Positions 6,368 through 59,776 of a stretch of 64,000 nt of DNA are shown piece after piece; within the stretch, counting starts at the first letter, position 1; each line of letters starts with the position of its first letter. Below the pieces are notes generated by a model that saw only the letters and a program-made list of their open reading frames with translations, ran no database searches and was not told the origin of the DNA. A program made the position numbers and the translations under genes. Source of the DNA: Candidatus Omnitrophota bacterium (lineage in GTDB: Bacteria > Omnitrophota > Gorgyraeia > B26-G9); assembly GCA_043805415.1 (NCBI GenBank), contig JAZDHZ010000034.1:37478-101477 (forward strand). Reading direction: 5' to 3'.

Positions 6368-8253
6368 ATGGCAAAAGTAATTGGAATCGATTTAGGTACA
6401 TCTAATTCAGCGGCATCGATATTAGAAGGAGGCAGACCAGTTATAATTCCTTCAGCCGAAGGAACAACAGTGGGTGGTGGTAAAGCTTTTCCGTCTATAG
6501 TCGCGTTTACAAAAGATGGGCAAAGACTGGTTGGCGAGCCGGCACGGCGTCAGGCTTCAATCAACGCGCAAGGAACAATCCAGGCAGCCAAAAGAAAATG
6601 GGGCTGGATTATCATTTCGAAGCTTATGGCAATAAATATACTCCGCAGCAGATATCAGCTTTTATCTTGCAGAAAATAAAAGAAGACGCGGAAGCTTATC
6701 TTGGCGATAAAGTAGAAGAAGTAGTTATTACCTGTCCGGCGTATTTTGATGACAATCAAAGAGCGGCAACAAAAGATGCGGGTCAAATCGCTGGGCTGAA
6801 AGTATTAAGAATTATTAATGAGCCTACAGCAGCCTGCCTTGCCTATGGACTTGATAAATCAGGTAAAGAACGAAAGATCCTGGTTTTTGACTTGGGCGGC
6901 GGAACTCTTGATGTAACAATAATGGAAATGGCTGATGGAGTATTTGAAGTAAAATCCACGCATGGGGATACTCATCTGGGCGGTACGGACATGGATAATA
7001 TTTTAATTGATTACATCGCTGATCAGTTTAAGAAAGAAAGCGGTATTGATCTGCGCAGTGATAAAATGGCTGTGCAAAGATTAAGAGAAGCCGCGGAAAA
7101 AGCAAAGATTGAACTTTCCGGAGCTTTGGCTACAGATATTAATCTGCCGTTTATTACGGCTGACGCGACCGGGCCAAAACATCTTACTTTAAATATAAGC
7201 CGAGCCAAACTGGAAGATCTTATCAATCCGATAGTTGAGCGCTGCCGTGGTCCGATTGAAAAAGCAATTGCTGATTCTAAAATTCCGGTTAACCAGATTG
7301 ATAAAATAATCATGGTTGGCGGCCCGACCCGGATGCCGATTGTTCAGAAATTTGTCGAAAGCGTTATTGGGACAAAAATTGAAGGCGGAGTTGATCCAAT
7401 GGAATGCGTAGCCATGGGCGCGGCGATTCAGGCAGGAATTATTAAAGGCGATGTAAAAGATATATTATTGCTTGATGTTACTCCATTGTCTTTAGGAATT
7501 GAAACCTTAGGCGGCGTTTGTACAAAACTAATTGAAAGAAATACAACAATTCCCACAAAAAAGAGCCAGATATTCTCAACCGCGGCGGATAATCAAACTG
7601 AGGTAACAATCAGAGTATTGCAGGGCGAACGTCAGATGGCTAATGATAATGTTGAGCTTGGCCGGTTTAATTTAGTGGGCATTCCGCCCGCGGCACGGGG
7701 TATTCCGCAAATCGAAGTCGCGTTTGATATTGACGCGAATGGTTTAGTACATGTCGCGGCTAAGGACCTTGGTACAGGCAAAGAACAGTCAATAAAAATC
7801 ACAGCTCCGAAAAAACTCTCAGAAGCAGAGATTGCCAAAATGGTAAAAGACGCGGAAGTTTTTGCTGAAGCTGATAAAAAGAAAAAAGAAGAAGTAGAAA
7901 CCCGTAACCAGGCAGAGACATTAGCCTACAGCACTGAAAAATCGCTTAAGGATTTCGGCGATAAAGTAAAAGCAGCGGATAAGAAAAATATTGAGAAGAA
8001 AATAGCGGATGTAAGAGAGGCGCTAAAAGGAACAGACACAGATAAGATCAAAGCGTCCGCGGAAGAGTTGTCAAAAGCATCACACTCTTTAGCTGAGGAA
8101 ATTTATAAAGCGCAGTCAGCACAGCAGCAATCTCAAGCCGGAGACCATGCAGCTGGCGCGGGGCAAGCTCAGCAAGAAGATTCACAAACAGATAAGAAAT
8201 CAAAAGAAGATGTTGTTGACGCGGAGTACAAAGTAGAAGACGAAAATAAATAA
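6368..8253 (+). CDS. dnaK: molecular chaperone DnaK, interrupted by a -1 frameshift in an A4-G-A4 run at 6590-6598
   Basis: ORF 6368..6679 encodes the DnaK N-terminus ([14 protein letters not shown]..). ORF 6598..8253 continues in another frame (..[36 protein letters not shown]..). Restoring one A gives a contiguous AAKRKMGLDY. Confidence 0.85.
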
Positions 8254-12807: not shown

Positions 12808-12843
12808 ATTAGCTAATAGCTGATGGCTCATAGCTAATGGTCA
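12808..12843 (+). repeat. degenerate TAGCTAATAG/TAGCTGATGG tandem repeat with stops in all three frames
   Basis: The sequence ATTAGCTAATAGCTGATGGCTCATAGCTAATGGTCA lies immediately after the HD gene stop. The same family occurs at 12951-12973, 13239-13284 (inverted), 32179-32211 and 39335-39381. Confidence 0.6.
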
Positions 12844-13238
12844 AAAGCAGAGAACAGAAAACGGAAGACATAAAACAAATTACTAATTACTAATTTCTAA
12901 ACTCTAAATAAACTCAAATGACTAAAGCCGAAAACACAGAAAGAGCACTTGGCTAATAGCCGATAGTCAATGGTTTGGCAAAAATTCTCTTTGAGCGGCG
13001 CTTTCGAACGTAATTTTGACATGGAGGGCAAAATAGTGAGAACGCGCGGCTGAGACTGCACGATGCAGACTCAGGCTTAGCGAAAAGACGTGTTTTTGCC
13101 GGTAACCAGTTACGTGAGCAGCGATTAGGAAAAGCAAGAAGACAGAAAACAGAAAAAAGCAGCGAATCGGGATTAGGACTTAGGAATTGCAATTGTCCTG
13201 TGACCTTGTGACTGGTGACCTTGTGACCGAAAGTTTTT

Positions 13239-21077: not shown

Positions 21078-22043
21078 TTATAATGTATTTAGCTTCAGGA
21101 GGTTTTCTTTGATTTCATTTTTAGGCGCTGGACAGACATTGTTTTTTGAGAGTATAGCCTGCCCTGATTCGCTGAACTCAAACTTTAGGAATTCTTTAAC
21201 CGCTGGAGTCAGATTGTCAGTAGTTATGTATTGAAACAATTTCCTTTTCAGAGGATAAATGCCTTTTTTGATTACTTCTTGATCAAATGGGTTAAGGGGC
21301 GTGAATCCTGTTTTGAACGCTAAATTAACGGCAGCGATTGAGGGATCTTTTGCATAGGCTAATCCGACAAATCCAATTGCCGATACATCACTTTTAAGCT
21401 TCTCTGTTTCGCTAGCGTCAGTTAGCTGCCGCATTGATTCGTCGTACGCGGCAATGTTCAGCTTTTGTTGAAAAAATAAGGCTTGCGCGGAAGTTAATTC
21501 TCTTCCCAAAAGAACAATCGGACAGTCATCTCCCCCAACTTGTTTCCAGTTTTTTATTTCACCGGTGTAGATTTGCCGTACCTGTTCCATGGTAAGGGTT
21601 TTTATTGGATTCGCTTCATTAACAACAACGCAAAGATTATCATGCGCCAGCACTAATTCAATATACCTGCGGTCGCTTTCCATCAGAGCCCGGATGTCTG
21701 AGGCCTGCATCTGGGAGGAAGCATTGGCAATCGTTATTGTACCTTGTTTTAACTGACTAATTGCCTCTTCTGTAGTGCCGCCCTTAACGTCAATCCGGGT
21801 GGAGGCATTGGCAATCGTTATCGTACCTTGGTTTAATTGACTGATTCCCACGTCCGTGGTACCGCCCTTAACATCAATTTTTATTTCAGGATGCGTGGCA
21901 AGATAATTAGCTGCTAAAATTTCAACAATCTTGACCATGGATTCTGATCCGGCGATTTTAATATCCTCTGCGCGGGTAGTTTCAATGTTTACGGCTAAAA
22001 ACAAGACAATTAGTAAAAAGTTCACGAAATAATTATTTTTCAT
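21078..22043 (-). CDS. periplasmic substrate-binding protein (PstS-like PBP fold) containing a 28-aa tandem duplication
   Basis: It has a signal peptide and PBP-like motifs. The start was moved to the ATG (rc 22041-22043) preceded by GGAGG. An internal 84-bp tandem repeat spans ~21721-21888. Confidence 0.45.
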   Translation of the reverse strand: MKNNYFVNFLLIVLFLAVNIETTRAEDIKIAGSESMVKIVEILAANYLATHPEIKIDVKGGTTDVGISQLNQGTITIANASTRIDVKGGTTEEAISQLKQGTITIANASSQMQASDIRALMESDRRYIELVLAHDNLCVVVNEANPIKTLTMEQVRQIYTGEIKNWKQVGGDDCPIVLLGRELTSAQALFFQQKLNIAAYDESMRQLTDASETEKLKSDVSAIGFVGLAYAKDPSIAAVNLAFKTGFTPLNPFDQEVIKKGIYPLKRKLFQYITTDNLTPAVKEFLKFEFSESGQAILSKNNVCPAPKNEIKENLLKLNTL

Positions 22044-22383
22044 CTCTAATTCCTCCGATATATTATTATTAGCACAAAAAAAAATAATTTCAAGCAATAA
22101 AAAAGTCTATTCAGCTATTTTTATTTTTGGAATATCTTCAATCCGGTAGAAAAATATATTAGCAAATTTTTCAAAAGTGTGGTATATTTAAATCAAGAGG
22201 ATAGACGAGCAGTAAAGTACGTTTAATGTTTGGATTTTGAATAAGTTCGGAAATTTAAGTGTAACAACCTCGTCTGTCCTCGTTTTTTTATGCCCAAATC
22301 ATATTAAGATTTTACGTATTGCGCCGTGAGTCGTGCGTATCGCGTAAAAGCCCCAATTTATCTATAGCTTTTGTTTCTATCCG

Positions 22384-32168: not shown

Positions 32169-32178
32169 AAAGCACTTT

Positions 32179-32211
32179 TAGCTCATAGCTGATAGCTCAT
32201 GGCTCATAGCA
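32179..32211 (+). repeat. degenerate TAGCTCATAG/TAGCTGATAG repeat (three-frame stop family)
   Basis: TTAGCTCATAGCTGATAGCTCATGGCTCATAGC starts 10 nt after the cutA stop. Confidence 0.6.
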
Positions 32212-32260
32212 AAAGCAAAAAAACAAAATAAAGTATAAAGTTGAAAACGCGATAAAGTAA

Positions 32261-39133: not shown

Positions 39134-39331
39134 ATGGCGCATCCAAAACGGAAACATTCTAAAACCAGGCGTGATACAAAACGGGCTTCAAACTCAAAAT
39201 TAGATACACCAGGCAGTTCATTATGTCCGGCCTGCAATCAGCCTAAACCAGCGCACCATATCTGTCCGCAGTGCGGAGAATATAAAGGGATTAAGTACAT
39301 AGTAAAAAAAGAAAAAGAACCGAAAAAGTAA
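39134..39331 (+). CDS. rpmF: 50S ribosomal protein L32
   Basis: It has the N-terminus MAHPKRKHSKTRRD and CPACNQ..CPQCG. Confidence 0.9.
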   Translation: MAHPKRKHSKTRRDTKRASNSKLDTPGSSLCPACNQPKPAHHICPQCGEYKGIKYIVKKEKEPKK

Positions 39332-39334
39332 GAA

Positions 39335-39381
39335 CTAATGGCTAATAGCTAATGGTCAATAGCTGATAGTTAAGAGCTAAG
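39335..39381 (+). repeat. degenerate TAATGGCTAATAGCTAATGGTCAATAGCTGATAG repeat (three-frame stop family)
   Basis: It starts 4 nt after the rpmF stop. Confidence 0.6.
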
Positions 39382-47232: not shown

Positions 47233-47289
47233 GATCAACGGATTCAAACACAGAAAGACGTGTAAGATGAGCGTTAAGATCAATAGCCA

Positions 47290-47327
47290 AAAAGCAATTC
47301 CTTAAGAAAGGAATTGCTTTTTTTTGT
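47290..47327 (+). terminator. intrinsic terminator after etfA
   Basis: AAGCAATTCCTT-aagaa-AGGAATTGCTT is followed by T7. A second GC-rich palindrome GGCCAGGTC-GAG-ACCTGGCC lies at 47369-47389. Confidence 0.7.
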
Positions 47328-47450: not shown

Positions 47451-47580
47451 TATTTAATTGAGAGAGTGGCGTTCCTCCGTCGTGCTTGTTCCTCGGTTTA
47501 TAAGGCGGGGCTATCCGTTTCTAAACCAAAGAAAATTAGATCACTTGGTTTTGAAGATGGATAACGTTGCGTGTTTACTC

Positions 47581-47625
47581 GTGAGCGGGGACGTTGTTTG
47601 ATAAATTGATTTATTTAAATAGTGA
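47581..47625 (+). repeat. 45-bp perfect direct repeat copy 1 (GTGAGCGGGGACGTTGTTTGATAAATTGATTTATTTAAATAGTGA)
   Basis: It is identical to 48463-48507. Similarity continues for a further ~40 nt (AAGGGGAYGGTT..TTTTTGG). Confidence 0.9.
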
Positions 47626-47742
47626 AAAAACTAAAAGGAATAAAGGGGATGGTTTTGTTTTTGGTAAACCATAAAATTTGCTTCCCGCATAAATCGGCGG
47701 GGCAAGCTGTTTGCCCTTCGACAAACTCAGGGTAAAAGCGCA

Positions 47743-47748
47743 AACGTT
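47743..47748 (+). promoter_or_regulatory. weaker AAACGTT upstream motif (GCGCAAACGTTATGTGAG) 22 nt before the RDD gene start
   Basis: It shares the CAAACGTTAT core with the motifs at 57828, 58159, 59755 and 60764. Confidence 0.35.
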
Positions 47749-47769
47749 ATGTGAGAAAAAATAATAAAT

Positions 47770-48483
47770 ATGAAAAAAGACTATAAAGAAAAAATATCGC
47801 AGTATACATTGGAAGAACTTATGGATGTTTCCATTCATATTGATAAGGAAAAGTTTCCTGATAGGTATGAAATGATTATTGCGGAGATTGAAGTTAGGAA
47901 GAATCAGCCAAAGGGTAGTTCAGAAGAACAAGATAAAAAACAAAGAATTTTTGCTGGATTCTGGATTAGATTTTGGGCATATGTTTTAGACATAATCCCG
48001 GTGCTATTATTATGGGTATTTTTATATAGGTTTTATTTTCAAGCAAAATCGGTTGTTACTCTATATTATGGAGTTTTTCCTCTGGGCTGGATTGCTTACA
48101 GAATTTATTTTCATGGTAGATGGGGGCAAACACTTGGAAAAATGGCAATGAAAATAAAAGTAGTTAATGTTGACTTTGGCAAAATTGATTATTATGCTGC
48201 TTTTAAAAGAGAAATTGTTAATATATTGATTGATTTAATCACAATAATTGTTGTAGTTGCAGCAATGAAATCTATTCCTTCAGTAAACTGGCTAGTTATG
48301 CCAGAAATAGAAAAGCAAAATGTAATTTTAAGGGCAAAAGATAAAATTAGTTTTATTGGATTGTTCTGGTTATATGCTGATATTATTTGTTTATTAATTA
48401 ATAAGCAAAAACGGTCGATACACGATTTTATTGGAAGCACAATAGTTGTAAGAGAAGAAGTAGTGAGCGGGGACGTTGTTTGA
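47770..48483 (+). CDS. RDD-family membrane protein
   Basis: It has the motifs WIRFWAYVLD, GQTLGKMAMKIKVV and RSIHDFIGSTIVV, with three to four TM helices. Confidence 0.6.
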   Translation: MKKDYKEKISQYTLEELMDVSIHIDKEKFPDRYEMIIAEIEVRKNQPKGSSEEQDKKQRIFAGFWIRFWAYVLDIIPVLLLWVFLYRFYFQAKSVVTLYYGVFPLGWIAYRIYFHGRWGQTLGKMAMKIKVVNVDFGKIDYYAAFKREIVNILIDLITIIVVVAAMKSIPSVNWLVMPEIEKQNVILRAKDKISFIGLFWLYADIICLLINKQKRSIHDFIGSTIVVREEVVSGDVV

Positions 48484-48507
48484 TAAATTGATTTATTTAA
48501 ATAGTGA
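48463..48507 (+). repeat. 45-bp perfect direct repeat copy 2, overlapping the last 7 codons of the RDD gene
   Basis: It is identical to 47581-47625. It encodes the ..VVSGDVV* tail of the RDD gene. Confidence 0.9.
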
Positions 48508-52071: not shown

Positions 52072-52581
52072 GTGATGAATGAAAATCATCAAACAAATAA
52101 TAAAGGAATGTCTGATCTGGAGATAAAATCCCTTATCGTTAAACGCAATAATGATGCGCAGGAAATCGTTCGATCCCTAAATTCTCAGAGCATTATTAAT
52201 CATTTAATGAGTTCTGATCTAGCAACAAGTATGAGTATGAGTATATGGCTTGGACTGCATGATAATTTTAACTGTGCCCGAGGTCTTTTAGTTCATGTTC
52301 GATCAAAAGAATCCGAGCTAGTTTCTGATGCATATAAATCTTCGGGGGAAATTGTTGGACGATTCCGTTGTAATAACTGTGGTTTTGAGACTGGACTCGG
52401 AGTAAAATACTTTCAACAAAGGATAACCAAAGGAGAGCTTAGCTCTCCGATTAAACCTGAAGATCTTTTTCTTGGTGCAGCAGCTAGAAAATTATCGCAG
52501 CAAGTAATTGATCTACGTAGAGCACAAATTGAATCTCTTCGTTTAAAAGGATCGGACAAGGATGTTTTTCCCTCTCTCTAG
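52072..52581 (+). CDS. hypothetical protein
   Basis: This is an ORF with a GGAGA RBS. It contains an RCNNCG motif. No recognisable domain was found. Confidence 0.3.
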   Translation: MMNENHQTNNKGMSDLEIKSLIVKRNNDAQEIVRSLNSQSIINHLMSSDLATSMSMSIWLGLHDNFNCARGLLVHVRSKESELVSDAYKSSGEIVGRFRCNNCGFETGLGVKYFQQRITKGELSSPIKPEDLFLGAAARKLSQQVIDLRRAQIESLRLKGSDKDVFPSL

Positions 52582-52708
52582 GGAAAGGGGTCAAGTCTGT
52601 AATCTCAACATTTCTCTAATAGAAAGCAACGGTTAAAGGGGTTAAAAAGTGCCCGAATTATTGAGCTAGTACAACATCGCATAAAATTACAGTGGAATAG
52701 AACTAGAG
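52582..52708 (+). repeat. 127-bp perfect direct repeat, copy 1 (begins GGAAAGGGGTCAAGTCTGTAATCTCAAC)
   Basis: It is 100% identical to 57625-57751. A further shared TGAAAACTG follows a 10-bp indel. It starts right at the stop codon of the preceding ORF. Confidence 0.9.
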
Positions 52709-52724
52709 TGAAAACTGCGTAAGC

Positions 52725-52740
52725 GGGGTCAAACCTTGAC
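52725..52740 (+). repeat. GGGGTCAAACCTTGAC palindromic element
   Basis: It is a GTCAA-acc-TTGAC palindrome of the same family. Confidence 0.6.
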
Positions 52741-52783
52741 TTTGGACAAAATGTGAAATATCAGGCGTGATAATAACTTCTAA

Positions 52784-53026
52784 AGTGGAGGTCTGACCCT
52801 GAGATTTTATGGGGAGATACCGGCGACAACTAAAGAGTCGGACGCTATGAGTAAAGCGCTGAAAAATAATAACTTTAAATTTGTCGGATCAACAATTTGT
52901 TACGCGTTTATGCAGGCAGTAGGGATGGTCAATGACCATTTAACTACATGTTATAGATATAATAGAGTACCTAAGGCAAAAAAACAGCGGTTAACGGATA
53001 GGGATAGGAGAAAAATAGTTGGATGA
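52784..53026 (+). pseudogene. tag: 3' remnant (~80 codons) of DNA-3-methyladenine glycosylase I gene
   Basis: The in-frame translation ..ESDAMSKALKNNNFKFVGSTICYAFMQAVGMVNDHLTTCY.. matches the Tag C-terminus (SDALSKALKKRGFKFVGTTICYSFMQACGLVNDH). There is no N-terminal two-thirds. Its stop overlaps the treZ start. Confidence 0.7.
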
Positions 53027-54849
53027 ACAAAAAAATAGGCGCTAACTATACAAATAATAATATCTGCGAATTCTCTGTATGGGCTCCTTTAAAAGAGGAT
53101 ATCTCGCTTCATATCCTTTCTGATAAGCAAAGGATTATTCCGATGCAGAAAGACGCGGACGGATATTTTAGCGTTACTGTTGATGAAGTTGTCCCGGGTA
53201 CAAAATATCTTTTTCACCTTGAAGCTAATAGCGAGTATCCGGATCCCGCGTCATTCTATCAACCGGACGATGTAATGGGCCCTTCTTGTGTTGTTGACCA
53301 TTCGGCCTTTGTCTGGGATGATAAAAATTGGCAGGGATGCTTGGCCGCGGAAATGATTATTTATGAGCTGCATGCCGGGACATTTACGCCAGAAGGAACA
53401 TTTGATGGGATCATTACAAAGCTTTCGCATTTGCAGGATTTGGGGGTTAATACAATCGAAATCATGCCGGTGGCTCAATTTCCCGGAACAAGAAACTGGG
53501 GATATGATGGGGTTTATCCTTTCGCCGTACAAAATTCATACGGCGGCCCAGCCGGGTTAAAAAGGCTGGTTAACGAATGCCACAAACGAAAAATAAGCGT
53601 TATTCTTGACGTTGTTTATAATCATTTTGGCCCGGAAGGGAATTTCTTGCGTCAATATATGCCGTGTTTTACGGATAAATATAAAACAGCGTGGGGCGAG
53701 GCAATCAATTTTGATGATGCCTACAGTTATGGAGTTAGAGATTACTTTATTCAGAATGCTTTGTATTGGTTGGAACACTTCCACATGGACGCTTTAAGAC
53801 TGGACGCGGTTCATGGTATTTTTGATATGAGCGCGAAACATATTCTTAAAGAATTATCGGAAAAAGTGACGGAATTTTCACGATTAAAGCAAAGAAAATA
53901 TTACCTAATTGCTGAGAGTGATTTAAATGACAGACGCGTCATAGATCCTGACTCCAAAGGCGGCTATGGGCTGGACGCGCAGTGGAACGATGATTTTCAT
54001 CATTGCCTGCATACGCTTTTGACAAAAGAAAATCAGGGATATTACGAAGATTTCGGACAGGTTGAACAAATGGCTAAAGCGCTAAAACAAGGATTTGTTT
54101 ATTCGTGGGATTATTCGAAATTCCGGAAAAGATATCACGGAAGCGCATCAACAGATATTTCTGCCGGCCAGTTTGTTGTTTTTTCTCAAAACCACGATCA
54201 AATCGGCAACCGCGTGAAAGGTGAACGGCTTTCCGCGCTGGTTTCTTTTGAGGCTTTGAAAGTTGCCGCCGGGACTGTCCTTCTGTCCGCGAATATTCCT
54301 TTATTATTTATGGGAGAAGAATACGGCGAGAACGCGCCGTTTCTCTATTTCATGAGTTTTCATGATAAGCAGTTGATTGAGGCGATTCGCGCCGGGAGAA
54401 AAAAAGAGTTTGCTTCATTTAATTGGCAGGGCGAACCGGATGATCCGTACGCTGAAGAAACATTTTTAAAATCAAAATTAAAATGGGATATAATTAAGAA
54501 TGAGAAACAGCGTGTTCTGTTGGAATTTTATAAGAAATTGATTCAGATAAGAAAATCGGCCGGGAGCTTGTTTGCGAAAGCTATTCTTGAGGTCAATGCC
54601 GATGAAGAAACTAAAGTAATTTCTATAACGCGTTTACAAAAACAAGCAGGGCTTCATCTCGCGATAAATTTTCACAATAAAAATGCCGCGTATACGTCTC
54701 TAAAGCTTGAGGGACAGTGGAAAAGATTGCTTGTCTCATCGGATATTAAGTGGTTAGGGCCAGGGACAAATGTTCCGGAAAAGGCCGTCAATAACGGAGA
54801 ATTTATTTTGGAACCTTTTAGTTTAATAGTATTTGAGAAAAAACAGTGA
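53023..54849 (+). CDS. treZ: malto-oligosyltrehalose trehalohydrolase (GH13)
   Basis: It has an N-terminal CBM48-like region (FSVWAP). Catalytic regions include DVVYNHFGPEG, GFRLDAVH-like DALRLDAVHG, EEYGENAPF and QNHDQIGNR. Confidence 0.9.
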   Translation: MNKKIGANYTNNNICEFSVWAPLKEDISLHILSDKQRIIPMQKDADGYFSVTVDEVVPGTKYLFHLEANSEYPDPASFYQPDDVMGPSCVVDHSAFVWDDKNWQGCLAAEMIIYELHAGTFTPEGTFDGIITKLSHLQDLGVNTIEIMPVAQFPGTRNWGYDGVYPFAVQNSYGGPAGLKRLVNECHKRKISVILDVVYNHFGPEGNFLRQYMPCFTDKYKTAWGEAINFDDAYSYGVRDYFIQNALYWLEHFHMDALRLDAVHGIFDMSAKHILKELSEKVTEFSRLKQRKYYLIAESDLNDRRVIDPDSKGGYGLDAQWNDDFHHCLHTLLTKENQGYYEDFGQVEQMAKALKQGFVYSWDYSKFRKRYHGSASTDISAGQFVVFSQNHDQIGNRVKGERLSALVSFEALKVAAGTVLLSANIPLLFMGEEYGENAPFLYFMSFHDKQLIEAIRAGRKKEFASFNWQGEPDDPYAEETFLKSKLKWDIIKNEKQRVLLEFYKKLIQIRKSAGSLFAKAILEVNADEETKVISITRLQKQAGLHLAINFHNKNAAYTSLKLEGQWKRLLVSSDIKWLGPGTNVPEKAVNNGEFILEPFSLIVFEKKQ

Positions 54850-57617
54850 AAGTACCTATTAGCACATATCGAATTCAATTTCACGCCGGCTTTACGTTTG
54901 AATCGGCTGCCGGCATATCGCGGTATTTGAAGGATCTGGGGGTATCGCATATTTACGCGTCGCCGATTCTTCAAGCCAAGAAGGGGAGCATGCACGGTTA
55001 TGATGTTGTTGATCCCCTTCAGATCAACCCGGAATTGGGCGGAGAAGAAAAATTTAACCGGCTTATTGAGCAGGTTAGGGCTCTGAATATGGGGTGGCTT
55101 CAGGATATTGTGCCTAATCACATGGCGTTTGACAGTGAAAACAAGATGTTGATGGATGTTTTTGAGAAAGGTGAGGCGTCCCAATTTTTTGATTATTTTG
55201 ACATTAACTGGAATCATCCTTACTTAAACTTAAAAGGAAAGGCATTGACGCCTTTTTTGGGAGATTTCTACGGCAATTGTCTTAAAAAAGGTGAAATAGT
55301 TGTCGGGATAGATGAGAATGGATTTTTTATTAAGTACTATGAATTGAAATTACCGGTACTGTTATCCTCCTACGCCGGAATTCTCAGAGGATGTCTTGAT
55401 TTATTAGAACACGCGGATAATCACACGACAGACGAGGCGGATCAATTCAATCACGCGATTGGGATTTTTAAGGCTTTAAACCAGCGTGACAATCAGGCGG
55501 TGACTGTTGCCAAAGCCGGCCTTTGGCGCGTGTTTACGAAAGATAAAAGAGTTGAAAAAACTATCGCCAGTTTCCTAGAGAAAATGAATAATGGAAAAAC
55601 GGATTCATTAGACCTGCTTCACAATCTAATCTCTGATCAACTCTTTCGTCTTTCTTTCTGGAAAGTAGGTAATGATGAGTTAAATTACAGGAGGTTCTTC
55701 ACGGTCAATTCCTTGATATGTTTAAGAGTGGAAGAATTCAGCGTCTTTGATTTTCTTCATAAGCGGATATCGGAGCTTGTTAATAATGGGCAAATAGACG
55801 GTATCAGGCTGGATCATATTGACGGTTTAGATTCTCCGCTTATTTATATGCGGCGGTTGAGGGAAAAAACAGGAGACCGGTATATTGTTGTGGAAAAGAT
55901 TCTTTGTAAAGATGAGCACCTGCCCGAGAATTGGCCGGTACAAGGAACGACGGGGTATGATTTCCTGAACTATGTTAATGGGGTTTTTGTTGACGCCGCG
56001 TCTGAACGCGCGATGGAAAGAATCTATATATCGTTTAGTGGTATGCGTTTTCGGTTTGAGTCGCTTGTCGTTGAAAAAAAACGGTTATTTATGGGAAAGC
56101 ATATGGCCGGCGATATCGATAATCTCGCCCATTTATTGAAAAATATTTTGAGTGGGAACATATATGGTTCTGATTTTACAATGTATGGGTTGCGCCGGGC
56201 TTTGGTCGAAATTATGGCGCATTTTCCGGTGTACCGAACTTATGCTTCGGAACTTGGGATAAGCGAGTCAGATATGTTTTATATTAAGCAGGCGCTGGAT
56301 AGAGCCCGGAGGACAGGGCAAGACCTTTTATATGAATTAGACGCGATTGAAAAAATCCTTTCTTTGGATTCCGCGCTTAATATAAACGACGCGGAAAAGG
56401 AAAAATACCGTCATTTTACGAAAAGATTTCAGCAGTTTACCGGCGCTCTGATGGCCAAAGGCTCAGAAGACACCGCGGATTATATTTTTAACCGTTTCAT
56501 ATCGCTGAATGAAGTAGGCGGGTTTCCGGAAAAGTTTGGCCTGGCATTAGGAGATTTTCACGAATTTAATGTTAAACGACTGAAAGACTGGCCGTATTCA
56601 ATGAGCGCGACGGCAACACATGATACCAAACGGGGAGAAGATGTCAGGGCGCGGATTAATGTGCTTTCTGAAATGCCGGAAGAATGGAAAAATATCGCAA
56701 AATTATCACATAAGCAAAATAAGAAGCACAAATCGAAAATCGGTCATGAGCTCGCGCCCGGCAAAAATGATGAATATCTTATTTATCAGACGTTCATTGG
56801 CGCTTTTCCATTTAAACCAGAGGAAGCAGAAAATTTTAAGGAAAGGATGAAGCAATATATCGTTAAAGCTGTTCGTGAAGCGAAGCTTCATACGGCATGG
56901 CTGAAACCAGACACACAATATGAGGAGGCCTGCGTCAAGTTCATTGATAGAATTTTAGATTCTTCAAGTGAAAATCAATTCCTGAATAATTTTATTCCTT
57001 TTCAAAGAAAAGTAGCATATTTTGGGATGTTTAATTCTTTGTCCCAGACACTTCTTAAATTAACAGCACCGGGTATACCCGATATCTATCAAGGCAATGA
57101 ATTGTGGGATTTTAATTTGGTTGATCCTGATAACAGAAGGCCGGTTGATTTTGAGAAACGTAAGCAATTTCTTAATGAGATACAAGGTAAAGAGAACGAT
57201 TTATCACCTCTGATCAAGGAATTGCTTGCCCACAAAGAAGACGGAAGAATAAAGATGTTCACGCTCTACCGTCTTTTGAAGGCAAGAAATGAATTTAGCG
57301 AATTATTTCAGAACGGCGAATATATCCCTCTTGAGGTCAAGGGGGCATTACAAAACCACATTATTGCTTTTGCCCGCAGAAAGGACAATAGCTGTTGTGT
57401 TGTCATCGCTCCGCGATTTTTATCAAAGGTTGTTAAAGAGAATGAGTTGCCTTTGGGAGAAACGGTCTGGCAGGATACAGCGATCATTTTACCCGAAGGA
57501 TTTCCGTCAGAATGGAGAGATATCCTAACCGGGGAAAGCCAGCGAGCGGAAGGGATTATCTTTATAGGAAAGGTTTTAAAGATTCTTCCGGTCAGTTTAT
57601 TGTCTTTGCATGAATAA
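54846..57617 (+). CDS. treY: malto-oligosyltrehalose synthase (GH13)
   Basis: It has the N-terminus ISTYRIQFHAGFTF..LGVSHIYASPILQA..GSMHGYDV and DGIRLDHIDGL. Length is 923 aa. Confidence 0.9.
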   Translation: MKVPISTYRIQFHAGFTFESAAGISRYLKDLGVSHIYASPILQAKKGSMHGYDVVDPLQINPELGGEEKFNRLIEQVRALNMGWLQDIVPNHMAFDSENKMLMDVFEKGEASQFFDYFDINWNHPYLNLKGKALTPFLGDFYGNCLKKGEIVVGIDENGFFIKYYELKLPVLLSSYAGILRGCLDLLEHADNHTTDEADQFNHAIGIFKALNQRDNQAVTVAKAGLWRVFTKDKRVEKTIASFLEKMNNGKTDSLDLLHNLISDQLFRLSFWKVGNDELNYRRFFTVNSLICLRVEEFSVFDFLHKRISELVNNGQIDGIRLDHIDGLDSPLIYMRRLREKTGDRYIVVEKILCKDEHLPENWPVQGTTGYDFLNYVNGVFVDAASERAMERIYISFSGMRFRFESLVVEKKRLFMGKHMAGDIDNLAHLLKNILSGNIYGSDFTMYGLRRALVEIMAHFPVYRTYASELGISESDMFYIKQALDRARRTGQDLLYELDAIEKILSLDSALNINDAEKEKYRHFTKRFQQFTGALMAKGSEDTADYIFNRFISLNEVGGFPEKFGLALGDFHEFNVKRLKDWPYSMSATATHDTKRGEDVRARINVLSEMPEEWKNIAKLSHKQNKKHKSKIGHELAPGKNDEYLIYQTFIGAFPFKPEEAENFKERMKQYIVKAVREAKLHTAWLKPDTQYEEACVKFIDRILDSSSENQFLNNFIPFQRKVAYFGMFNSLSQTLLKLTAPGIPDIYQGNELWDFNLVDPDNRRPVDFEKRKQFLNEIQGKENDLSPLIKELLAHKEDGRIKMFTLYRLLKARNEFSELFQNGEYIPLEVKGALQNHIIAFARRKDNSCCVVIAPRFLSKVVKENELPLGETVWQDTAIILPEGFPSEWRDILTGESQRAEGIIFIGKVLKILPVSLLSLHE

Positions 57618-57624
57618 GTTTGCA

Positions 57625-57751
57625 GGAAAGGGGTCAAGTCTGTAATCTCAACATTTCTCTAATAGAAAGCAACGGTTAAAGGGGTTAAAAAGTGCCCGAA
57701 TTATTGAGCTAGTACAACATCGCATAAAATTACAGTGGAATAGAACTAGAG
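57625..57751 (+). repeat. 127-bp perfect direct repeat, copy 2
   Basis: It is identical to 52582-52708. It starts 8 nt after the treY stop. Confidence 0.9.
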
Positions 57752-57827
57752 GGTCAGGCATTGAAAACTGAAGACTAAAAACAATTGGAAATGCAGGCAA
57801 TCAAATAACGCTGTGCGTTTCTTCTGC

Positions 57828-57844
57828 CTGAGCTCAAACGTTAT
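57828..57844 (+). promoter_or_regulatory. conserved upstream motif CTGAGCTCAAACGTTAT (TGAGCTCA + AACGTT palindromes)
   Basis: It lies 19 nt upstream of the ATG at 57863, followed by an AGGAGG RBS. The same motif occurs at 58159, 59755, 60764 and, degenerate, 63257. Confidence 0.6.
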
Positions 57845-57862
57845 AACTAAGGAGGGAATATC

Positions 57863-58105
57863 ATGGCTTGTCCGATAGAAGGTAGCTGTACATTTCATAA
57901 TAATCAAATACATATGTTGGAAGAACGGAAAAAAATAATACAAGTAAGGTTTTGTCTTAGTAGTTATTCGCAATGTGCTCGTTATAAAGTATATGCATAT
58001 TTTAAATCTACACATCAGGTTCCTCCAGGTTTATACCCAAATAATTTTGAGCAAGCTAATGAACTGATCCAAAACGATAGGCGGAAACATGGCGGCGGGC
58101 ATTAA
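57863..58105 (+). CDS. small Cys-containing protein (80 aa; CPIEGSC..C..C)
   Basis: This is an ORF with a strong RBS and the conserved upstream motif. No recognisable family was found. Confidence 0.35.
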   Translation: MACPIEGSCTFHNNQIHMLEERKKIIQVRFCLSSYSQCARYKVYAYFKSTHQVPPGLYPNNFEQANELIQNDRRKHGGGH

Positions 58106-58174: not shown

Positions 58175-58212
58175 ATAAATTTTTCGCTAGTTAAAATAAT
58201 TTAAGGAGACAA

Positions 58213-59742
58213 ATGTTCCATATTAGGCTTATTGATCGATTCTTTGTTTTATTGATTAAGATTATTGATAAAGCGCAGGATAAGATTATCAAGAATTATG
58301 CTGTGTTTACTTTGATTGTGAGTAGGGCTCCGCAAACGGTCGGAGCGGAAGCTTGCTGGTATAGAGCAATCAAAGAATTTATGATTGCTTATAAAGATGT
58401 TCCGGCTTATAGAGAGTTTCTGAAGAAGAGTGGCTGGAAATGCGAATCCAGGGATGCTAAACGTATTTTTGAATCATTGCCTTTAATGGATAAAGCTAAT
58501 TATATTCTTCCTTATAGTACAGAGGATAGATGTCTTAACGGTAAGTTCTTTGACAAAGGGGTTGTTATTGATGAGTCTTCAGGATCAACAGGTATTCCTT
58601 ATAACTGGGTAAGAAGCCAGGAAGAAAGGGAAATTGTTAAACAGCTGATTGGGGTGTATCTGCGATACTGTTATGGTAATCAGAATTTTATTATTCTGAA
58701 TACATTCAGTATGGGAGCCTGGGCAACTGGGTTTAATATGGCTTTAGCAGCACAGTCATTGGGTGTGGTTAAGTCTACTGGTCCGGATGTGGATAAAATA
58801 TTAAGAACGCTTGAATTTTTTAGCGGTAAATATCCGTATATTCTTAATGGATATCCGCCATTTTTAAAATATCTGTTTGATGAAGGAGATAAGCGGGGAT
58901 TTAAGTGGAAAGATTATAATATCCATGTGCTTGTCGGCGGAGAAGGCATGTCCGAAGGATTAAGGGATTATCTGCTTAGGTACGCGAAGACGGTTTATTC
59001 CGGTTATGGGGCTTCTGATTTAGAGATTGGCATCGCAGGTGAGAATCCTTTGACTGTTATGATCAGGAAGTTATGCCTTAAAGATCCTGAGTTAAAAAAC
59101 ACGCTTTTTGGCGAAGATCACCGCATGCCCATGCTTTTTCAGTATAATCCTTTGGATCATTTTATTGAAATAATCCAAAAAGAAATAGTTGTGACCATAA
59201 GTAAGCCTTGGACGCTTTCTCCCAGGATAAGATATAATATCAAGGATGAAGGGGGCATGATTACTTTTGATCAGATGAAAGAAAAGCTGAAAGCGCATAA
59301 TGTTGATTTATTGGAATTGGAACTGGAATGTAAATATCCGCGTTGGTATGTACCGTTTTTATTCATATACGGCAGAAAAGACAGTACTGTATCAGTTATG
59401 GGAGCAAATATATACCCTGAGGATGTGGAAAGTGTAATATATTCAGATTTGATGCTGGCACAGAATATTAATTCATTTTCAATATCACTGGAAGAGGATA
59501 CTCAAGGCAATCCGCATCCTTGTTTTGAATTTGAATTACTGGATATAGAGCAAAAATCCCGGGTTGAAAAGAAATTAAGTGAATTAATGTCATCCGGTCT
59601 GGCTAAATTAAGTCTGGATTATAAGAAGGCTTTGGAAGAGTATCCGCAGGCACTTGAGCCGATTATCAGGATTTTTGAGTTAAATCAAGGGCCGTTTAAG
59701 GAAAATCAAAGGCGGATCAAAAGACGCTATGTTAAGAGCTAG
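58213..59742 (+). CDS. adenylate-forming enzyme of the PaaK/CapK/F390-synthetase-like (phenylacetate-CoA ligase) family
   Basis: It has the A1 motif ESSGSTGIPY (compare SSGTTGKP). The C-terminal ~509 aa match this family, with an N-terminal extension. Confidence 0.5.
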   Translation: MFHIRLIDRFFVLLIKIIDKAQDKIIKNYAVFTLIVSRAPQTVGAEACWYRAIKEFMIAYKDVPAYREFLKKSGWKCESRDAKRIFESLPLMDKANYILPYSTEDRCLNGKFFDKGVVIDESSGSTGIPYNWVRSQEEREIVKQLIGVYLRYCYGNQNFIILNTFSMGAWATGFNMALAAQSLGVVKSTGPDVDKILRTLEFFSGKYPYILNGYPPFLKYLFDEGDKRGFKWKDYNIHVLVGGEGMSEGLRDYLLRYAKTVYSGYGASDLEIGIAGENPLTVMIRKLCLKDPELKNTLFGEDHRMPMLFQYNPLDHFIEIIQKEIVVTISKPWTLSPRIRYNIKDEGGMITFDQMKEKLKAHNVDLLELELECKYPRWYVPFLFIYGRKDSTVSVMGANIYPEDVESVIYSDLMLAQNINSFSISLEEDTQGNPHPCFEFELLDIEQKSRVEKKLSELMSSGLAKLSLDYKKALEEYPQALEPIIRIFELNQGPFKENQRRIKRRYVKS

Positions 59743-59754
59743 GGTTGGATAGCT

Positions 59755-59776
59755 CTGCCTGAGCGCAAAACGTTAT
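59755..59776 (+). promoter_or_regulatory. conserved upstream motif CTGCCTGAGCGCAAAACGTTAT preceded by a stop-codon hairpin AGAGCTA-N8-TAGCTCT
   Basis: It lies 30 nt upstream of the ATG at 59806, followed by an AGGAGG RBS. Confidence 0.6.

Follow-up and report, generated by a model that had tools for sequence, protein, structure and literature searches.

In the window, by which we mean the whole 64-kb stretch of DNA that was analysed, a chromosomal segment from an uncultured Candidatus Omnitrophota, the region at 0-47 kb holds core genes, including malQ, hrcA-grpE-dnaK-dnaJ, greA, uvrA, tonB/exbBD, pta-ackA, plsX-fabD-fabG-fabF and an acyl-CoA dehydrogenase gene with ETF; downstream of the ETF operon, 47289-47322 is a strong terminator. 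From that terminator to at least 63.3 kb, all ORFs lie on the + strand, and most of them lack a Pfam family. Within this run lies a 4.9-kb block (52709-57624) in which a fragment of tag, the gene for 3-methyladenine DNA glycosylase I (the fragment is written tag' below), is followed by treZ and treY, and which sits between two identical 127-bp direct repeats, R1 and R2 (Table 1). R1 begins immediately after the stop codon of an ORF at 52072-52581 that encodes 169 aa of no known family (ORF169).

Table 1. Positions of the genes, repeats and signals at the tag'-treZ-treY block
Feature	Position	Strand	Remarks
R1, exact 127-bp direct repeat, left copy	52582..52708	+	100% identity to R2; begins with the GGGGTCAAGTCTGTAATC motif
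9-mer TGAAAACTG	52709..52717	+	second copy at 57762-57770 after R2, past a 10-nt indel
74-nt inverted-repeat element	52726..52799	.	arms 52726-52746 (GGGTCAAACCTTGACTTTGGA) and 52779-52799 (TCTAAAGTGGAGGTCTGACCC)
Open frame with tag remnant	52784..53026	+	80 sense codons and TGA; Tag-homologous part from about 52802/52811 to 52969
59-aa ORF, the sole ORF with a start codon within the remnant	52847..53026	+	starts at the conserved internal Met of ...SDAMSK...
AGGAG, Shine-Dalgarno-like sequence of treZ	53006..53010	+	12 nt before the ATG, within the remnant tail; read directly
treZ, malto-oligosyltrehalose trehalohydrolase, intact	53023..54849	+	TIGR02402, 727.9 bits against a cut-off of 538.8; 100% identity to the PGAP protein MFH1062751.1 from an Omnitrophota MAG
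treY, malto-oligosyltrehalose synthase, intact	54846..57617	+	TIGR02401, 934 bits against a cut-off of 498.65
R2, exact 127-bp direct repeat, right copy	57625..57751	+	7 nt after the treY stop
Palindromic inter-ORF element	57739..57846	+	ATAGAAC-TAGAG-GGTCAGGCA ... TGCCTGAGC-TCAAAC-GTTATAA; 12/15 positions complementary, 0/300 shuffles

The open frame that carries the remnant is bounded upstream by an in-frame TAA (52781-52783). A Pfam profile search matched it to PF03352 (Adenine_glyco) with E = 1.4e-21 and 77.6 bits (gathering cut-off, 25), and residues 10-58 of the frame (nt 52811-52957) correspond to positions 128-176 of the 177 in the profile. The match was further strengthened by the Tag proteins of E. 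coli (PDB 1LMZ; E = 1.1e-16, remnant residues 10-59 aligned to Tag 133-182) and Salmonella (PDB 2OFI; E = 1.6e-16). The first-pass annotation had placed a truncated tag remnant at exactly these coordinates and had aligned it with the last ~45 residues of E. coli Tag; the position and the C-terminal character of the match both hold, and its length comes to about 50 residues instead of ~45. While a whole Tag domain spans about 177-189 profile positions, the NCBIfam profiles TIGR00624 and NF007678 were matched by the remnant over their last 50 positions alone (130-179 of 179 and 133-183 of 189, respectively), with scores of 73.9 against a whole-protein cut-off of 232.5 and of 73.4 against 349. 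The longest BLAST alignments put the start of the Tag homology at 52802, and the profile alignment puts it at 52811. Pieces of Tag were also sought by tblastn with seven Tag sequences against the entire window at a lenient threshold (E <= 50), and this yielded one match, running from 52802/52814 to 52960-52975 with E values of 1e-17 to 1e-26. No N-terminal piece of Tag was detected in any frame across the window, including both repeat flanks, as all other tblastn matches had E >= 0.18; this agrees with the earlier statement that the N-terminal two-thirds are not encoded upstream, and the 64 kb hold no second Tag match.

In Tag structures, the helix-hairpin-helix (HhH) part that binds DNA, the pocket for the base and two of the four zinc ligands all belong to the N-terminal two-thirds. 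Retained in the remnant is the conserved ...FVG.TICY.FMQA.G.VNDH...C block, in which NDHLTTC aligns with NDHVVGC of 1LMZ, so that both C-terminal zinc ligands (His and Cys) are present. Of the four Tag ligands (Cys4, His17, His175 and Cys179; E. coli numbering), the N-terminal pair is gone along with the missing N-terminus, and two are left. The first start codon of the frame is an internal ATG at 52847, and neither a start codon nor a ribosome-binding site stands at the N-terminus of the domain. Compared with the Tag proteins of E. coli and Salmonella (PF03352, TIGR00624; 1LMZ, 1NKU, 1P7M, 2OFI, 2OFK), the likeness thus lies in the C-terminal block with its His/Cys ligands, whereas the N-terminal start, the HhH and the base-binding part are lacking. 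Because the catalytic two-thirds are missing and the scores fall under the NCBIfam cut-offs, the feature is, judged from its sequence, a non-functional, 5'-truncated tag remnant, that is, a pseudogene comprising the 3' end (the last quarter) of the gene, and its predicted product cannot be a glycosylase. The 59-aa sequence has no exact copy in a protein collection that contains the PGAP products of the neighbouring genes. Between V1747_07710 and _07735, the PGAP locus-tag series includes one tag to which no protein belongs, as would fit an annotated pseudogene at the remnant; proteins of this MAG at the locus include MFH1062748.1, MFH1062750.1, MFH1062751.1, MFH1062753.1 and MFH1062754.1. In these respects, it resembles the incomplete pseudogenes that annotation pipelines flag (a known gene devoid of its 5' part, beside repeat elements, with a protein-less locus tag) and shows nothing unusual against them. 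The remnant alone matters little and is best annotated as a truncated pseudogene and not as a small protein, and the capacity of the organism for 3-methyladenine repair is not inferable from the present locus.

The remnant has decayed only slightly. Its frame runs through 75 codons with neither stop nor frameshift, and it equals the consensus of its best homologues at 46 of the 52 aligned positions. Four of its residues are rare ones, including NNN where K-R-G is usual; relaxed selection was considered on this ground and dropped as not significant, since 17 of 109 homologues carry as many rare residues. The slight decay of the remnant, together with the 100% identity of the two 127-bp repeats, suggests that the truncation may be recent. 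At about 52969 the Tag-like part ends (...NDHLTTCYRY) and gives way to a 21-residue K/R-rich tail that runs into the ATGA. Counted from the zinc-binding Cys, this tail has 24 aa and exceeds in length the tails of 116 of 118 homologues, so that its final codons may be read-through. Basic (K/R-rich) tails as such are normal among homologues of the Tag subfamily.

Downstream of the remnant, the locus shares with the treX-treZ-treY and treZ-treY operons for trehalose from glycogen an intact treZ and treY that pass their equivalog cut-offs and overlap by 4 nt, the same overlap as in relatives. It departs from the treX-treZ-treY type in that a tag fragment stands upstream in place of treX, and a Pfam scan of every ORF of 250 aa or more revealed no treX in the window. 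Among other treZ loci, the eight most similar ones (65-73% identity at the protein level) are arranged as glgE-treS-glgB-treX-treZ-treY, as treX-treZ-treY or as treZ-treY alone. A further 80 treZ loci from metagenomes (49-63% identity) were examined with 5-kb flanks, and a Tag-like sequence occurs in none of the 88. Adjacency of tag and treZ thus appears unique to the present genome in current data, in a lineage that is poorly sampled and whose nearest TreZ is 73% identical, and neither a donor nor a relative with this adjacency was found among the 88 loci. The first-pass annotation had treated tag as a former resident of this place, for which the loci of the relatives offer no evidence. In one treX-treZ arrangement (L003), the treX upstream of treZ ends in an identical ATGA overlap. 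The possibility that the tail of the remnant is the 3' end of a treX was rejected, as it shows no similarity to the TreX C-terminus.

The overlap with treZ itself, already pointed out in the first-pass annotation, is formed by the remnant TGA (53024-53026) and the treZ ATG (53023-53025). This stop lies inside treZ's own ATGAAC, and any upstream frame that is open in that phase ends there. We estimate the chance of such an overlap for a random upstream frame at ~10%, from a one-in-three chance of the right phase times a probability of ~0.3 that 19 codons of AT-rich DNA contain no stop. Promoter and terminator scans of 52582-53022 on the + strand gave no promoter-like or terminator-like sites, and the internal ATG at 52847 has a weak Shine-Dalgarno sequence (AAGAG) upstream. 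Translational coupling of the putative 59-aa ORF to treZ is possible and would not be needed, because treZ has its own AGGAG and its closest relatives use treX or no upstream gene; at most, the 3' end of the remnant would give treZ its AGGAG and an upstream reading frame. These observations bear on the idea that the fragment has been kept for a function, either as a 59-aa ORF that feeds ribosomes to the treZ start or as a small protein made of the Tag C-terminus. The ATGA overlap, the intact frame and the closeness to the family consensus speak for such retention. The intactness is explained equally well by a recent event and the rare residues are matched in number by 17 of the 109 homologues, and with no good Shine-Dalgarno sequence at the internal ATG, a treZ that is served by its own AGGAG, close relatives whose treZ follows treX or no gene at all, no 59-aa product in the protein collection and two of four zinc ligands, we regard retention for function as quite improbable.

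A second reading of the same junction holds that tag' arrived together with the upstream repeat element, which would make the tag'/treZ joint itself a novel recombination junction. This would fit the absence of tag beside treZ in all 88 related loci and the length of the tail, which continues after the Cys as if into foreign sequence. It demands, in turn, a junction that falls within ~20 nt of the natural end of tag as well as of the exact treZ start, and in its K/R-richness the tail resembles those of native Tag proteins, so that we consider it very unlikely indeed, the least probable of the readings weighed here.

The break in tag lies next to several repeats and palindromes. The 127-bp repeat and a GGGGTCAAACCTTGAC palindrome (52725-52740) stand where the first-pass annotation had located them, and between R1 and the Tag homology there are 93 nt of unique sequence with motifs of the array type (the GGGTCA palindrome and TGAAAACTG). 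The arms of the 74-nt inverted-repeat element are 81% complementary around a 32-nt loop, a score reached by 0-3 of 500 shuffles (p <= 0.006), and the Tag homology begins 2-12 nt past its outer arm. On the right side, the palindromic element at 57739..57846 ends in a conserved TGAGCTCAAACGTTAT motif just before the next ORF (57863-58105). Folding as single-stranded DNA was no more stable than that of shuffled sequences at either end (57618-57863, z = 0.29; 52582-52810, z = -0.86). Homology extending beyond the repeats was also considered: a global alignment of the sequence after R1 with that after R2 was suggestive, and shuffling showed it not to be significant, the shared 9-mer excepted.

The exact length of the repeat raises the question of whether the placement of the block is an assembly artefact, in which a shared k-mer node of 127 bp was misthreaded along a path A-R-B-R-C and the block belongs to another strain or to a circular molecule. 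Assemblers commonly use a maximum k of exactly this size, 127, another Omnitrophota MAG has a contig with k127 in its name, and dnaK is split into two overlapping ORFs in the window, which hints at indel errors or is a real frameshift. Against this, an exact repeat of an unrelated length (45 nt) flanks another gene, and the reads must join both ends of the block to the repeat regardless. Moreover, the 93 nt of unique sequence with array-type motifs mean that tag is truly truncated, and truly linked to the repeat family, whatever the placement, and an artefact therefore seems improbable to us.

The DNA on both sides of the block has a character of its own. While core genes have a GC3 of 0.382 +/- 0.036, most of the neighbouring small ORFs lie at 0.24-0.29; tag' (0.35), treZ (0.40) and treY (0.42) are core-like in this measure, and so is an ORF of the array at 58213-59742 (ORF509, 0.36). 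Two families of motifs mark the spaces between the ORFs. Hairpins of the GGGTCAAGTCT type, placed directly behind stop codons, occur at 6 sites against 0.35 expected, all of them on the + strand and within 47-58 kb, and units of the form GGGGTCAAG-loop-CTTGAC are found in many copies 0-12 nt past stop codons. The TGAGCTCAAACGTTAT motif (with <=3 mismatches) is found at 6 sites against 0.56 expected, four of which are within the array region, and a variant longer by one base stands at 59760; these four and the variant precede the ORFs at 47770, 57863, 58213, 59806 and 60823, at a spacing of 23-47 nt before the start codon (23 nt for ORF 57863-58105). A 45-nt exact repeat brackets an RDD-family gene. 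The 21-mer AAGGGGTCAAGTCTSTAATCY was found in 2 of 185,579 species-representative genomes, both of them Omnitrophota MAGs, and there it stands directly after a stop codon.

Genes of the array recur elsewhere. Homologues of ORF169 (77-82% aa identity) are present in three other contexts, with the similarity confined to the stretch from ribosome-binding site to stop, and two contigs with ORF169 homologues are identical as far as the stop codon and then diverge. ORF509 shares 88.5% nt identity with a second Omnitrophota MAG, in a stretch that opens 18 nt ahead of the ATG and closes 3 nt past the stop and is the only similarity there; its homologue in that MAG follows an MNT/HepT pair. About 280 nt upstream of the ORF509 homologue lies a sequence of ~85 nt that recurs at the end of the contig (L097). 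Because homologues of ORF169 and ORF509 occur in other contexts, with homology that ends at the gene borders, the genes of the array behave as movable modules. A Pfam scan of the 33 ORFs in the window that reach 250 aa, all of which were covered, recognised no recombinase, integrase or transposase, and no tRNA genes or Rfam families that could serve as integration targets were found in a scan for them.

Cassette-like ORFs with an identical upstream motif thus lie on either side of tag'-treZ-treY. The remnant does not mark a boundary between array and core, as the block is enclosed by 127-bp repeats and has such ORFs to its left and to its right. The first-pass annotation had taken the break for direct evidence of a core gene disrupted by the accessory array: the repeats do adjoin the break, and the claim of direct evidence is not supported. 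A relocated module fits at least as well as disruption in place because the block is enclosed, none of the 88 related treZ loci carries tag, and array genes are found in other contexts.

Disruption in place would mean that tag-treZ-treY is native core DNA, that accessory DNA with its repeats entered upstream and deleted the 5' two-thirds of tag, and that more accessory DNA with the second 127-bp copy was inserted downstream of treY. The core-like GC3 and codon usage of tag', treZ and treY, unlike those of most flanking small ORFs, speak for it, as do the tight, operon-like tag/treZ junction with its ATGA overlap and the position of the break next to a repeat element. The composition, in turn, is weak evidence that does not discriminate, because ORF509 has an equally core-like GC3 and is mobile. 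Disruption in place also has to account for cassette-like ORFs that share an upstream motif and flank the block left and right, for identical direct repeats that bracket exactly tag'-treZ-treY and for 88 related treZ loci without tag, and we hold it to be a serious alternative that is nonetheless rather unlikely.

Our preferred reading, to which we assign a probability of roughly 45-50%, is that tag'-treZ-treY is a relocated or rearranged module and that tag' is a hitch-hiking remnant at its left edge. Because the junction is tight and operon-like, tag would formerly have stood directly upstream of treZ in the DNA from which the block came. The treZ-treY segment would then have moved into the accessory region, or have been rearranged within it, through recombination at repeat elements, with a left breakpoint inside tag, so that a 5'-truncated piece was carried along. 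The block would have been inserted between ORF169 and the ORF that follows, and a circular intermediate recombining in the 127-bp element would produce precisely the flanking direct repeats that are observed. Relocation is favoured because DNA of the array type encloses the block on both sides, because this region and a sister MAG contain further modules between direct repeats, and because array genes change their context and tag-treZ is not a conserved arrangement. Against relocation, the core-like GC3 of tag', treZ and treY would also fit an island of resident core DNA into which accessory DNA came from either side, the window scan revealed no recombinase, and the sequences after the two repeat copies are, apart from the shared 9-mer, not significantly similar.

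The finding itself is an ordinary rearrangement scar at short repeat elements and not a working gene. The value of the remnant is that of a marker, which fixes the left edge of the 4.9-kb treZ-treY block between the identical repeats. It shows that, in this accessory region of Omnitrophota, short palindromic repeat elements are where rearrangements cut, and that genes can be severed in the process. Of more interest than the remnant is the cassette-like array that surrounds it.

This array was therefore compared with known systems of a similar appearance. It shares with CALIN and integron cassette arrays a one-directional run of mostly small ORFs whose function is not known, and with integron cassettes the recurrence of its genes in other contexts. 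As with attC sites, a conserved motif ending in ...CAAACGTTAT (GTTAT), which we take to resemble attC right ends, stands 23-47 nt before start codons, and two elements show significant terminal inverted complementarity (ATAAC...GTTAT). Judged by the attC architecture of inverted core sites R'' (RYYYAAC) and R' (GTTRRRY) with paired L''/L' boxes, the 185-nt element that ends at 47750 (ATAACGTTGCG...CGCAAACGTTAT) fits R''/R' (0/500 shuffles), and it and the one ending at 57846 are the two of eight sites with attC-like complementarity; the other six are without it. The array differs from integrons in having no integrase in the 64 kb, from attC sites in that most of its sites lack R''/R' complementarity and that folding of two elements was no better than that of shuffles, and from integron cassettes in the size of the tag'-treZ-treY block, which at 4.9 kb holds two and a quarter genes. 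A canonical integron is for these reasons (no integrase, no significant folding, core-site complementarity at 2 of 8 sites) no more than a candidate reading, and a search of the literature on integrons in Omnitrophota returned nothing relevant.

A more far-reaching possibility, and to our minds an improbable one, is that the array represents a so far undescribed cassette system of Omnitrophota, integron-like or of a non-integron kind, in which tag'-treZ-treY is a freshly made cassette that still bears its scar. A segment of a chromosomal operon would have been captured with its 3' end intact and its 5' end truncated. This polarity, complete at the 3' side and cut at the 5' side within the upstream gene and beside a palindromic element, would be expected from copying that proceeds from the 3' end, for example from reverse transcription of a polycistronic transcript that stopped early; an equal polarity would result if a secondary site within tag had recombined. 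If the region is a cassette system, the remnant would bear on the origin of cassettes from chromosomal genes, and if the block was made in this way, it would be a rare direct trace of the birth of a gene cassette.

REP/BIME-type palindromes and MITE-like hairpins offer the other comparison, with their many extragenic copies after stop codons and, in the present case, a 21-mer common to other Omnitrophota MAGs; in contrast to REP/RAYT systems, the window holds no Y1 (RAYT) transposase. The array thus resembles both integron cassette arrays and REP-type extragenic palindromes. Scans of a viral collection with two motifs gave 0 matches for one and 6 for the other, the latter taken as chance level. 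As a separate observation, made by eye, a 13-codon ORF (MSRPLRIEYEDAF*) that follows the copy of the hairpin in L011 looks like the N-terminus of a Y1 (RAYT) protein.

The genes tag', treZ and treY, the first a 5'-truncated remnant of the 3-methyladenine DNA glycosylase I gene, are enclosed by a 127-bp exact direct repeat, 3' of which a 10-nt indel is followed by a 9-mer common to both copies. Since 127 bp is a common maximum assembler k-mer, the repeat as assembled calls for read-level confirmation. A similar arrangement surrounds the RDD-family gene, whose last 21 nt fall inside the second copy of a 45-nt exact repeat, and by-eye comparison revealed a similar but diverged AAGGGGA(C/T)GGTT...TTTTTGG stretch after each copy; a perfect tract adjoining a diverged tract is thus common to both repeats (by eye in the 45-nt case).

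Two further sequence families occupy the spaces between ORFs of the array. Hairpins of the GGGGTCAAGTCT..CTTGAC family lie 0-12 nt 3' of stop codons, with 6 sites observed in the window versus 0.35 expected and frequent tandem duplication of their purine-rich lead-in. Across a collection of 185,579 species, the 21-mer of this family was found in only two other genomes, both Omnitrophota (loci L011 and L012). By eye, the short ORF near the L011 hairpin looks like the N-terminal end of a Y1 transposase of the IS200/RAYT type and, judged by this likeness, would be another truncated gene adjoining the repeat family. The conserved motif (C)TGAGCTCAAACGTTAT, located 23-47 nt 5' of ORF starts and confined within the window to the accessory region, is similar to integron attC sites at their right end, and the element at 47561-47750 displays terminal inverted complementarity of 25 nt (ATAACGTTGCG...CGCAAACGTTAT).

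Homologues of array genes were observed in unrelated neighbourhoods of other metagenomes and MAGs (L094-L097), with similarity that extends no further than the ribosome-binding site on one side and the stop codon on the other. L095 and L096 are identical as far as the stop codon and diverge beyond it. In the Omnitrophota MAG L097, the ORF509 homologue is preceded by an MNT/HepT pair, and an ~85-nt sequence occurs once upstream of this homologue and again at the contig end. The Cys-rich ORF directly after the right 127-bp repeat has a good AAGGAGG site. No Pfam family was found for this ORF, and the protein collection containing the neighbouring PGAP products lacks its exact sequence.

Further 5'-truncated Tag ORFs were identified in public data at L001 and L013. 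The L013 ORF, whose first 38 residues are glycosyltransferase-like and fused to a Tag C-terminus, is possibly a chimera, and it is the closest relative of the window remnant (81-83% amino acid identity).

Among the core genes of the window, dnaK is split, which reflects either an assembly indel error or a frameshift in this essential gene. Heptamer-repeat runs were also observed at three intergenic places of this core portion, together with an 84-bp tandem duplication hosted by a periplasmic-binding-protein-like ORF.

Coordinates of repeats, motifs and ORFs in the window and comparison loci
Feature	Position	Details
127-bp repeat	window 52582-52708, 57625-57751	spacing 5043 bp
45-nt repeat	window 47581-47625, 48463-48507	brackets RDD-family gene (47770-48483)
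GGGGTCAAGTCT..CTTGAC hairpins	window 49131, 49232, 49927, 51222, 52588, 57631; L011 321-341; L012 1592-1612	L011 on - strand
13-codon ORF (MSRPLRIEYEDAF*)	L011 about 285-245	- strand; ~35 nt downstream of hairpin
(C)TGAGCTCAAACGTTAT motif	window 47735, 57829, 58159, 59760, 60765, 63247; L095 about 225-245	
ORF169	window 52072-52581	homologues in L094, L095, L096
ORF509 region	window 58195-59745	homologue at L097 3917-5466
Cys-rich ORF	window 57863-58105	80 aa
Truncated Tag ORF	L001 7959-8267	88 aa; middle of 60.9-kb contig, 36% GC
Truncated Tag ORF	L013 129-497	122 aa; 658-bp contig
dnaK, two overlapping ORFs	window 6368-6679, 6598-8253	HSP70 profile positions 1-71, 102-598
Heptamer-repeat runs	window 12810-12849, 32172-32225, 39325-39378	TAGCTAA/TGGCTCA type
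84-bp tandem duplication	window 21709-21876	minus strand; 83% identity; within ORF 21078-22097
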